64,000 nucleotides of DNA, taken from the NCBI RefSeq assembly GCF_057098645.1, contig NZ_CM169472.1. One strand, written 5' to 3'. Position numbers: made by a program. Shown piece by piece: positions 1 to 3,000 of the stretch; positions within the stretch are counted from its first letter, which is position 1; each line of letters starts with the position of its first letter.

Positions 1-3000
1 CCGTGAGTCCGAAACGGGTGGACACGCCAGGACACGGTATGGGGAACCGTTTTCTGCGGGCCGGGGTGGAGGTCGATCGATATGGCCGTGCCGTTGCGTA
101 CCATATCTGTGAGGATGATTTTCCGTTCTCTGGGAGTGGACGATGGGAACGGATCCCGCGTGAACTTCCCACCGGGCGTCCGGCCATGCTGCATATTTTC
201 GAGCCGGTGGAGGACGGGCAGACCCGTGGGGCCAATCAGTTTTACAGCGTAATGGAACGGCTGAAGATGCTCGATTCCCTGCAGGCAACACAGCTTCAGT
301 CGGCCATAGTGAAGGCGATGTATGCAGCGACGATTGAAAGTGAACTTGATACCGAAAAGGCCTTTGAATATATCGCCGGCGCGCCACAGGAGCAGAAGGA
401 TAATCCGCTTATTAATATTCTGGAGAAGTTCTCCAGCTGGTATGACACGAATAGCGTGACGCTGGGCGGAGTCAAAATTCCGCACCTTTTCCCTGGTGAT
501 GATCTGAAACTACAGACTGCGCAGGATTCAGACAATGGATTTTCGGCGCTTGAACAGGCGCTGCTGCGGTATATCGCCGCCGGTCTTGGCGTTTCCTACG
601 AACAGTTGTCCCGTGATTACTCGAAGGTCAGTTATTCAAGTGCCAGGGCCTCTGCCAATGAGTCGTGGCGCTATTTTATGGGGCGGCGAAAATTTATTGC
701 GGCCCGGCTGGCCACGCAGATGTTTTCCTGCTGGCTGGAAGAGGCACTTCTTCGGGGGATTATCCGTCCGCCACGGGCGCGTTTTGATTTTTATCAGGCG
801 CGATCAGCCTGGTCACGGGCAGAGTGGATTGGTGCCGGAAGAATGGCCATTGACGGGCTCAAGGAGGTTCAGGAATCGGTGATGCGCATTGAGGCCGGAC
901 TGAGCACGTATGAGAAAGAGCTGGCGCTGATGGGCGAGGATTATCAGGACATTTTCCGCCAGCAGGTCAGGGAATCTGCAGAGCGGCAAAAAGCCGGACT
1001 CTCACGTCCGGTGTGGATAGCGCAGGCGTATCAGCAGCAGATAGCGGAGAGTCGCAGGCCGGAAGAGGAGACAACACCCCGTGAGACGTAATCTTTCACA
1101 CATTATTGCCGCGGCATTCAATGAACCGCTGCTTCTGGAGCCCGCCTATGCGCGGGTTTTCTTTTGCGCGCTCGGGCGCGAGATGGGGGCAGCAAGTCTT
1201 TCGGTACCACAGCAGCAGGTACAGCTTGATGCTCCCGGAATGCTGGCTGAAACGGACGAGTACATGGCCGGAGGTAAACGACCGGCCCGTGTTTACCGGG
1301 TGGTGAACGGTATTGCTGTACTGCCGGTGACCGGCACGCTGGTGCACCGGCTGGGGGGTATGCGGCCATTTTCCGGAATGACAGGCTATGACGGCATTGT
1401 CGCCTGTCTTCAGCAGGCAATGGCGGATAGCCAGGTGCGGGGCGTACTGCTGGACATTGACAGTCCGGGCGGGCAGGCCGCCGGCGCGTTTGACTGCGCT
1501 GACATGATTTACCGCCTCCGTCAGCAGAAGCCGGTCTGGGCACTGTGCAATGACACGGCCTGTTCTGCAGCCATGCTGCTGGCGTCGGCCTGCTCCCGAC
1601 GGCTGGTTACCCAGACATCCCGTATCGGCTCCATTGGCGTGATGATGAGCCATGTCAGCTATGCCGGTCATCTGGCGCAGGCCGGTGTGGATATCACGCT
1701 GATTTACTCAGGGACGCACAAGGTGGATGGCAATCAGTTTGAAGCCTTACCGGCAGAGGTTCGCCAGGACATGCAGCAGCGCATTGATGCGGCGCGCCGG
1801 ATGTTTGCCGAAAAAGTGGCGATGTTTACCGGTCTGTCTGTTGATGCCGTCACGGGAACAGAGGCCGCCGTTTTTGAAGGTCAGTACGGCATTGATGCCG
1901 GGCTGGCGGATGAATTAGTCAATGCGTCGGATGCCATCAGTGTGATGGCCACGGCGCTGAACAGTAATGTCAGAGGAGGCACTATGCCGCAATTAACTGC
2001 AACGGAAGCCGCCGCGCAGGAGAACCAGCGAGTGATGGGGATCCTGACATGCCAGGAAGCGAAAGGACGTGAACAGCTTGCCACGATGCTGGCAGGACAA
2101 CAGGGCATGAGCGTTGAACAGGCCCGGGCGATTCTGGCCGCGGCGGCACCGCAGCAGCCGGTGGCATCCACGCAGAGTGAAGCCGATCGCATTATGGCGT
2201 GTGAAGAAGCGAACGGTCGTGAACAACTGGCGGCAACGCTGGCGGCGATGCCGGAGATGACGGTGGAAAAAGCCCGCCCGATCCTGGCTGCTTCACCGCA
2301 GGCGGATGCCGGACCCTCACTCCGTGATCAGATCATGGCACTGGATGAGGCAAAAGGGGCTGAGGCGCAGGCTGAACAGCTGGCTGCCTGCCCGGGAATG
2401 ACTGTGGAGAGCGCCCGGGCTGTGCTGGCTGCGGGATCAGGTAAGGCAGAACCGGTCTCTGCATCCACAACCGCCCTGTTTGAACGCATCATGGCGAACC
2501 ATTCACCGGCAGCGGTACAGGGTGGCGTGCCACAGACGTCAGCAGACGGTGATGCGGACGTGAAAATGCTCATGGCCATGCCATGAAGTCAGTGCTGACC
2601 ATCAACAGGAGGTTTTTACAATATGGTAACGAAAACCATCACTGAACAGCGTGCGGAAGTACGTATTTTTGCCGGTAATGATCCGGCTCATACCGCCACA
2701 GGCAGCAGCGGGATTTCCTCGGCAACACCGGCACTGACGCCCCTGATGCTGGATGAAGCTACCGGGAAACTGGTGGTCTGGGACGGACAGAAAGCCGGTA
2801 GTGCGGTTGGCATACTGGTACTGCCGCTTGAAGGCACAGAGACGGTACTGACGTATTACAAGTCGGGGACCTTTGCGACGGAGGCAATCCGCTGGCCTGA
2901 CAGTGTGGATGAACACAAAAAGGCCAACGCCTTTGCTGGCAGTGCCCTGAGTCACGCGGCGCTGCCGTAACACGTTATCAGGCCACCGCGGTGGCCTGAC

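Follow-up and report, generated by a model that had tools for sequence, protein, structure and literature searches.

Why does a prophage protease/scaffold gene carry three copies of a segment that its lambda counterpart carries once, and what is this segment? The question is raised by a 64,000-nucleotide (nt) stretch of contig NZ_CM169472.1 (NCBI RefSeq assembly GCF_057098645.1), hereafter the window, in which a gpC-like protein of 501 amino acids (aa) is encoded at positions 1081-2586. The gene most likely represents the phage 21-type gene pair 5/6, in which a module of ~44 aa has undergone an ancient, fixed triplication at the protein level. The repeat in the scaffold part of the protein is confirmed to be real, in frame, old and kept at the protein level. 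It is also already known, having been annotated for decades in the record of the phage 21 head operon.

A self-dot-plot of the 501-aa protein revealed strong diagonals at offsets of 50 (R1/R2), 47 (R2/R3) and 97 aa (R1/R3), which are found only within aa ~315-455. The three units and the segment that follows them are listed below, along with the independent E-value (i-E) of the match to a hidden Markov model (HMM) of the unit and the predicted local distance difference test score (pLDDT) in an AlphaFold2 (AF2) model.

R1: aa 314-357, nt 2020..2151, plus strand; ENQRVMGILTCQEAKGREQLATMLAGQQGMSVEQARAILAAAAP; unit HMM i-E = 7e-21; AF2 pLDDT 94-96, three helices.
R2: aa 364-407, nt 2170..2301, plus strand; TQSEADRIMACEEANGREQLAATLAAMPEMTVEKARPILAASPQ; unit HMM i-E = 9e-17; AF2 pLDDT only 55-72.
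R3: aa 411-454, nt 2311..2442, plus strand; GPSLRDQIMALDEAKGAEAQAEQLAACPGMTVESARAVLAAGSG; unit HMM i-E = 9e-12; AF2 pLDDT 92-95.
C-terminal tail: aa 455-501, nt 2443..2583, plus strand; starts with a helix, ALFERIMAN (aa 465-473, nt 2473-2499), resembling the first helix of the unit.

Amino-acid identity among the core units is 47-58%. Smith-Waterman scores are 101 for R1-R2 (z = 15.3), 97 for R2-R3 (z = 13.6) and 87 for R1-R3 (z = 11.2); the z values derive from composition-preserving shuffles (mean ~26, standard deviation ~5), and the observed score was reached in 0 of 2000. R1-R3 are colinear over ~40 residues and share the motif positions EAxG(R)E, PxMTVE and AR.(I/V)LAA. An initial annotation of the window had proposed three tandem in-frame repeats of ~50 aa at 2000-2450, in the Nu3-like part of a gpC-like protein. 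The repeats are borne out by the offsets and z values, and the span is accurate, as the core units occupy 2020-2442. Their location downstream of the internal ATG 1984, the annotated start of gene 6, agrees with the Nu3-like assignment, while the gpC-like identity is upheld by a Peptidase_S49 match (E = 1e-34), 59% identity to lambda gpC and an SppA fold. An absence of internal repetition at the nucleotide or protein level can be dismissed, because the protein repetition is highly significant.

Units of this kind might be a by-product of an Ala/Glu/Gln-rich low-complexity helix rather than the outcome of duplication. The region is Ala-rich, and a putative fourth partial unit in the tail (ALFERIMAN) was not significant in the shuffle test (z about 0). 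However, none of the 2000 shuffles, which preserve composition, reached the observed scores (z = 11-15), the colinear units have conserved motif positions, and each of them matches an HMM built from the single copies of other phages (i-E = 1e-11 to 1e-21). The shuffles and the unit HMM refute this explanation, to which we assign next to no probability.

The same gene, repeats included, is on record in phage 21. By megablast, window positions 1081-2586 align ungapped with positions 4572-6077 of M81255 ('Bacteriophage 21 head gene operon'), and identity to phage 21 gene 5/6 (M81255, OL657228) is 98.6% at the nucleotide level over all 1506 nt. M81255 annotates gene 6 and its ribosome-binding site (RBS). 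It also has three repeat_region entries, called 'Tri1 box', 'Tri box' and 'Tri3 box' and marked 'function unknown; putative'. A check of M81255 5542-5936 against window 2051-2445 established that the regions do align. The boxes correspond to the cores of the three units.

Tri1 box: M81255 5542-5645, window 2051-2154, plus strand; core of R1.
Tri box: M81255 5682-5792, window 2191-2301, plus strand; core of R2.
Tri3 box: M81255 5823-5936, window 2332-2445, plus strand; core of R3.

As the boxes are annotated there, the repeats are not a new observation. The phage 21 head genes were reportedly described by Smith and Feiss in 1993 (Gene 126:1). For the claim of prior description we rely on the GenBank annotation of M81255. 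In OL657228, the complete genome of phage 21, the two products are named 'capsid protease/scaffolding protein' and 'scaffolding protein'.

The listing of the boxes as repeat_region features of unknown function in M81255 leaves room for a role as DNA or RNA, for instance as protein-binding sites, recombination hot spots or regulatory RNA structures, and OL657228 marks two CII-consensus pattern matches inside gene 6. The CII sites, however, come from simple pattern matching, lie on the opposite strand and are not repeated with each unit. Nucleotide identity between units is 52-61%, and the longest common exact word is 8-9 nt. Tandem Repeats Finder returned 0 rows for the array at a minimum score of 30, and the units were not reported by a second DNA repeat search of the window. 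On these grounds, a DNA tandem repeat or variable-number tandem repeat was rejected. Codon identity between units is 58-74% at positions 1 and 2 vs 34-37% at position 3, which shows selection on the units at the protein level. All three units keep the reading frame and correspond to a module whose protein sequence is conserved across ~100 diverse homologue clusters. A function exerted by the boxes as nucleic acid is therefore very improbable.

The gene probably yields two products from one reading frame, namely a 501-aa protease with a scaffold domain and a 200-aa scaffold alone, made from position 1984. The features involved are the following.

Long open reading frame (ORF): 1081..2586, plus strand; 501 aa, counterpart of gene 5 (lambda C type), a prohead protease of family S49 with the scaffold domain at its C-terminus.
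Shine-Dalgarno-like GAGGAGG: 1973..1979, plus strand; read from the sequence, 4 nt upstream of ATG 1984; annotated as RBS in M81255 and OL657228.
Nested in-frame scaffold gene (gene 6 analogue, Nu3-type): 1984..2586, plus strand; 200 aa, corresponding to residues 302-501 of the 501-aa protein.

In the 501-aa product, Pfam PF01343 (Peptidase_S49) matches aa 146-293 (E = 1.1e-34, 120 bits, cutoff 24.9), and PHROG 53 'head maturation protease' matches the whole protein (E = 1.5e-227). Both residues of the Ser-Lys dyad, S162 and K214, are invariant in an alignment of 94 homologues. The AF2 model obtained with this alignment has a mean pLDDT of 85, and a Foldseek search with the model retrieved Bacillus and E. 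coli SppA (4kwb/3rst; E ~1e-17; template modelling score on the target 0.84-0.87). The protein contains an S49 (SppA-like) serine protease domain with a Ser-Lys dyad.

Phage 21 records carry the nested coding sequence from the internal ATG as 'gp6' or 'scaffolding protein'. The internal start, Met302, is kept in 88 of the 94 aligned homologues, and GGAGG precedes the homologous internal Met in the window, in lambda (Met309) and in Gifsy-1. PHROG 8399 'head scaffolding protein' matches the scaffold part in three stretches. Translation from the putative start at ATG 1984 would give a scaffold identical to the C-terminus of the protease. In lambda, nu3 is annotated in RefSeq NC_001416 (2633-3238) as starting at codon 239 of C, encoding 201 aa, with no visible Shine-Dalgarno sequence. 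Lambda Met309 (nt 2843), the homologue of the phage 21 gene 6 start, has GGAGG upstream and gives a product of 131 aa. To judge from these sequences, the RefSeq start of lambda nu3 may differ from the start actually used.

Lambda gpC (NC_001416) is 59% identical to the window protein. It is 439 aa long, as the initial annotation had it, and carries the unit only once, as ENSRIMGILNCEEAHGREEQARVLAETPGMTVKTARRILAAAPQ, to which R1, R2 and R3 each align. The lengths of the 21-type and lambda proteins compare as follows.

Protease part: 301 aa in the 21-type protein vs 308 aa in lambda.
Met-to-unit linker: 12 aa in the 21-type protein vs 48 aa in lambda.
Repeat block: 141 aa in the 21-type protein vs 44 aa in lambda.
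Tail: 47 aa in the 21-type protein vs 39 aa in lambda.
Total length: 501 aa in the 21-type protein vs 439 aa in lambda.

The two extra unit copies add 97 aa. The net gain over lambda gpC is 62 aa, because the lambda linker is longer by 36 aa and its protease part by 7, while the 21-type tail is longer by 8. The idea that the repeats explain the extra length is right in substance, although the copies add more than the net gain.

The family consensus of the unit (~44 aa) is ERxRIxAILxxxEAxGRxxLAxHLAxxTxMSxExAxxxLAAxPK. In AF2 models made with the 94-sequence alignment, each unit forms three short helices, and in the tail a helix spans aa 461-474; pLDDT is <50 over aa 475-500, and the last ~25 residues are predicted to be disordered. 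R1 is the unit nearest to the family consensus and to the single copy of lambda, with scores of 125 against the lambda copy and 167 against the R1 of P0093, a metagenomic homologue. R3 is the most diverged unit; in its G-R turn, the near-invariant Arg is replaced by Ala. In single-copy proteins, the unit ends, in the median, 52 aa short of the C-terminus. Among 88 representatives, the linker between Met and unit is shortest in the two three-copy proteins (11-12 aa, where the median is 40 and the longest linker has 98), in which the Nu3-like segment is longest (200-202 aa vs a median of 137). These lengths suggest that a long linker and a high number of units trade off against each other.

Searches of Pfam, NCBIfam and the PDB sequences gave no match to the unit; in the PDB, both the scaffold protein and the unit profile retrieved chance matches only (a designed repeat protein, DacD and haemoglobin). 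For a P22-type coat-binding fold, Foldseek returned nothing with an AF2 model of the scaffold alone, but this model, made without an alignment, is of low confidence (pLDDT 64), and the result carries no weight. A helix-hairpin-helix motif (HhH, PF00633) was considered for ..LAxxPGMTVExARxILAA.. and rejected. Only R3 (aa 427-450) gave a match, with 13.1 bits and E = 0.094 (cutoff 24), and the family consensus has no Gly hairpin.

Copy number was assessed by running the unit HMM on 149 representative homologues (50%-identity clusters; the best 150 of ~30,000) from an exhaustive search. A search with the scaffold part alone returned mainly fragments and partial ORFs, unfit for copy counting, and a word-index search with the unit profile (216 candidates, 5 short matches) was uninformative on other architectures. 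Among the best 149 representatives, the unit is present once in 100, is missing from 48, many of which are shortened or have other C-termini, and occurs three times in 1 other cluster, P0093. Three-copy clusters number 2 among the ~102 module-bearing representatives. P0093 (505 aa, 61% identical) lies on a contig with the order Nu1-A-W-portal-protease-decoration. Three units are also found in the prohead protease of the Salmonella prophage Gifsy-1 (STM2605, 498 aa). Since Gifsy-1 and P0093 both have three units, the triplication is older than the divergence of the E. coli and Salmonella lineages concerned.

The 603-nt scaffold region was found in 1,869 of 5,426 complete E. coli genomes (~1/3). 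Coverage is at least 80% in 1,863 of the carriers, and 38 of 40 sampled records give a single ungapped match. All IMG/VR loci with the region (80/80) are ungapped over 603 nt. A homologue is present in 763 phage records; the query is covered to 80% or more in only 19 of them, and exactly 19 are above 80% identity. Copy number shows essentially no variation among the ~1,870 E. coli genomes. The triplication is rare across the family, yet common, old and fixed where present, with no sign of dynamic expansion. Repeat expansion in the scaffold, which had been flagged as unusual, is rare in the family; it is neither new nor dynamic.

A few deviant alleles were recorded. The S49 peptidase of NZ_AP022003.1 (locus 598-2046) is a 482-aa allele with an in-frame 19-aa deletion in R2 (..GREQ|LAA..), which takes out helices two and three and has short LAA/LAA direct repeats at its edges. 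P0092 (382 aa) is a 99%-identical 21-type variant that lacks aa 269-386, a 119-aa deletion that starts where the protease domain ends and reaches into R2; it is probably a copy from a decaying prophage. Variable copy number among close relatives was rejected, as the variants seen are these 19-aa and 119-aa deletions, neither of which corresponds to a whole unit.

If R1 alone works, R2 and R3 may be neutral filler, a spacer left by an old in-frame duplication in a largely disordered scaffold. Such a view accommodates the position of R1, which is far nearer to the family consensus and the lambda copy than either R2 or R3, the loss of the near-invariant Arg from R3, the low confidence with which R2 is modelled, and the 19-aa deletion in R2 of one genome. 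The linker, shortest where there are three copies, looks as though copies replace linker length, and Medina et al. (2011), by its title, gives lambda Nu3 as intrinsically disordered. However, R2 and R3 hold 47-58% amino-acid identity and the helix pattern despite third positions randomised to 34-37%. Nonsynonymous polymorphism is not enriched in R2 and R3 relative to R1. Three copies are kept in Gifsy-1 and P0093 at ~60% overall identity, and in essentially all of the ~1,870 E. coli genomes. We consider neutral filler unlikely.

Under the preferred reading, in which all three copies are kept at the protein level, what might the module do? A study of lambda (PMC3224144) describes Nu3 as a scaffold that is needed for portal incorporation, self-associates and is removed by C, and tabulates the interactions Nu3-E, Nu3-Nu3, Nu3-C and Nu3-B. 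The unit is the sole strongly conserved element of the Nu3 part across ~100 diverse clusters and for this reason is taken as the functional core of the scaffold. Inside the procapsid, its partners would be the major capsid protein and/or further scaffold molecules. By way of the C-terminus common to both products, the module would also bring the protease into the shell, and the scaffold would finally be destroyed by the S49 protease. We lean slightly towards regarding the triplicated form as a trivalent scaffold on a very short tether.

For the array, we infer an origin by recombination. In single-copy proteins, the ..ALDRLM.. that follows the unit resembles the unit start ..SRIMGIL.., and the RIM motif at the start of the unit may have undergone unequal crossing-over with the similar DRLM motif behind the unit. 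R2 begins with ..ADRIMAC.. and R3 with ..RDQIMAL.., and neither has the GIL turn of R1. Such a loss would be explained by unequal recombination between the RIM and DRLM motifs, the proposed junction.

Several points weigh against this account of the module. A role of the unit in capsid or scaffold contact is something we infer, and M81255 itself gives 'function unknown'. The unit matches nothing in Pfam, NCBIfam or PDB. A stable three-helix module is at odds with the title of Medina et al. (2011), in which lambda gpNu3 is termed intrinsically disordered. The R2 model is weak (pLDDT 55-72), and the near-invariant Arg is gone from R3. While R1 of P0093 is a clear orthologue of the window R1, one-to-one orthology of R3 with P0093 is ambiguous. 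Moreover, given the E. coli variant with the 19-aa deletion in R2, all three units need not be functionally required.

A broader proposal is tentative and rather doubtful. The ~44-aa unit could be a widespread, uncurated three-helix domain serving as the capsid- and self-interaction core of lambda-type scaffolds. Valency (1 vs 3) would then be traded off against how long the disordered linker is (48 vs 12 aa), setting the reach and avidity of the scaffold in the procapsid. If this is true, phage 21 and lambda form a natural pair for learning how scaffold valency governs assembly of the T=7 shell. As a discovery, the triplication has limited value, and what it adds is a description: the segment repeated here corresponds to a conserved module that the lambda-type protease/scaffold family as a whole has in single copy. 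More than one copy is confined to the 21/Gifsy-1 type and one related cluster, with an invariant copy number and an unusually short linker. The unit points to a conserved domain that family databases have yet to model.

The genes that surround the protease/scaffold gene are arranged as in lambda. The head-gene neighbours are as follows.

Portal: 3-1091.
Protease/scaffold: 1081-2586, plus strand.
Decoration protein: 2623-2970.
Major capsid: 3028-4056.

The lambda B-C/Nu3-D-E order is reproduced by the ORFs of the window and, in a genome whose scaffold region is identical, by the RefSeq annotation. The protease gene begins, with GTG, inside the portal gene, whose end it overlaps by 11 nt (1081-1091), and the same overlap is found in phage 21, lambda-type records and Gifsy-1; the arrangement is consistent with translational coupling. 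Minus-strand ORFs beneath the repeats (1881-2192, 1982-2167, 1993-2226 and 2328-2579) are regarded as by-products of GC-rich coding sequence.

The lambdoid prophage is defective: downstream of the major capsid gene comes an FI-like gene (ORF 4060-4491), beyond which the tail genes are missing. An ORF at 4484-4933 is the C-terminal remnant of a tail-tip (J-type) gene, and is followed by a Lom/Ail-family gene (5001-5600) and by a tail-fibre gene. The ORF of the tail-fibre N-terminal domain (5659-6879, plus strand, 406 aa) has a long Ala/Ser/Glu-rich stretch (..SAAEAE..SAESA..), then collagen-like Gly-X-Y repeats. In the best-matching genomes, which are from enterohaemorrhagic E. coli (EHEC) O145 (NZ_CP028379.1 851187-869789), the element is located near bioA and has the type III effector genes nleH and cif.

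Known systems compare with the window protein as follows. The P22 scaffolding protein binds coat through a C-terminal helix-turn-helix, present in a single copy, and is not fused to a protease. Like the unit, the P22 domain is a small helical element near the scaffold C-terminus, and may serve as a working analogy for the role of the unit; it differs in that no sequence or structural match was obtained and in being a single-copy element with no protease fusion. Lambda shares with the window the B-C/Nu3-D-E order, the S49 protease, the nested scaffold and a ~44-aa unit with an ALDRLM-type helix and a short tail behind it, but has one unit instead of three, a linker of 48 residues instead of 12 and a total of 439 aa instead of 501. 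Gifsy-1 and P0093 feature three units in matching order behind a short linker. They are, however, about 60-70% identical to the window protein, and their R3 retains the G-R-E turn lost from the R3 of the window. Closest of all is phage 21, which has the same nested products of 501 and 200 aa, the RBS and three units at matching positions, and from which the window gene differs by ~1.4% point differences; phage 21 is viable, whereas the prophage that harbours the window gene, in an EHEC-type E. coli, is defective and tail-deleted.

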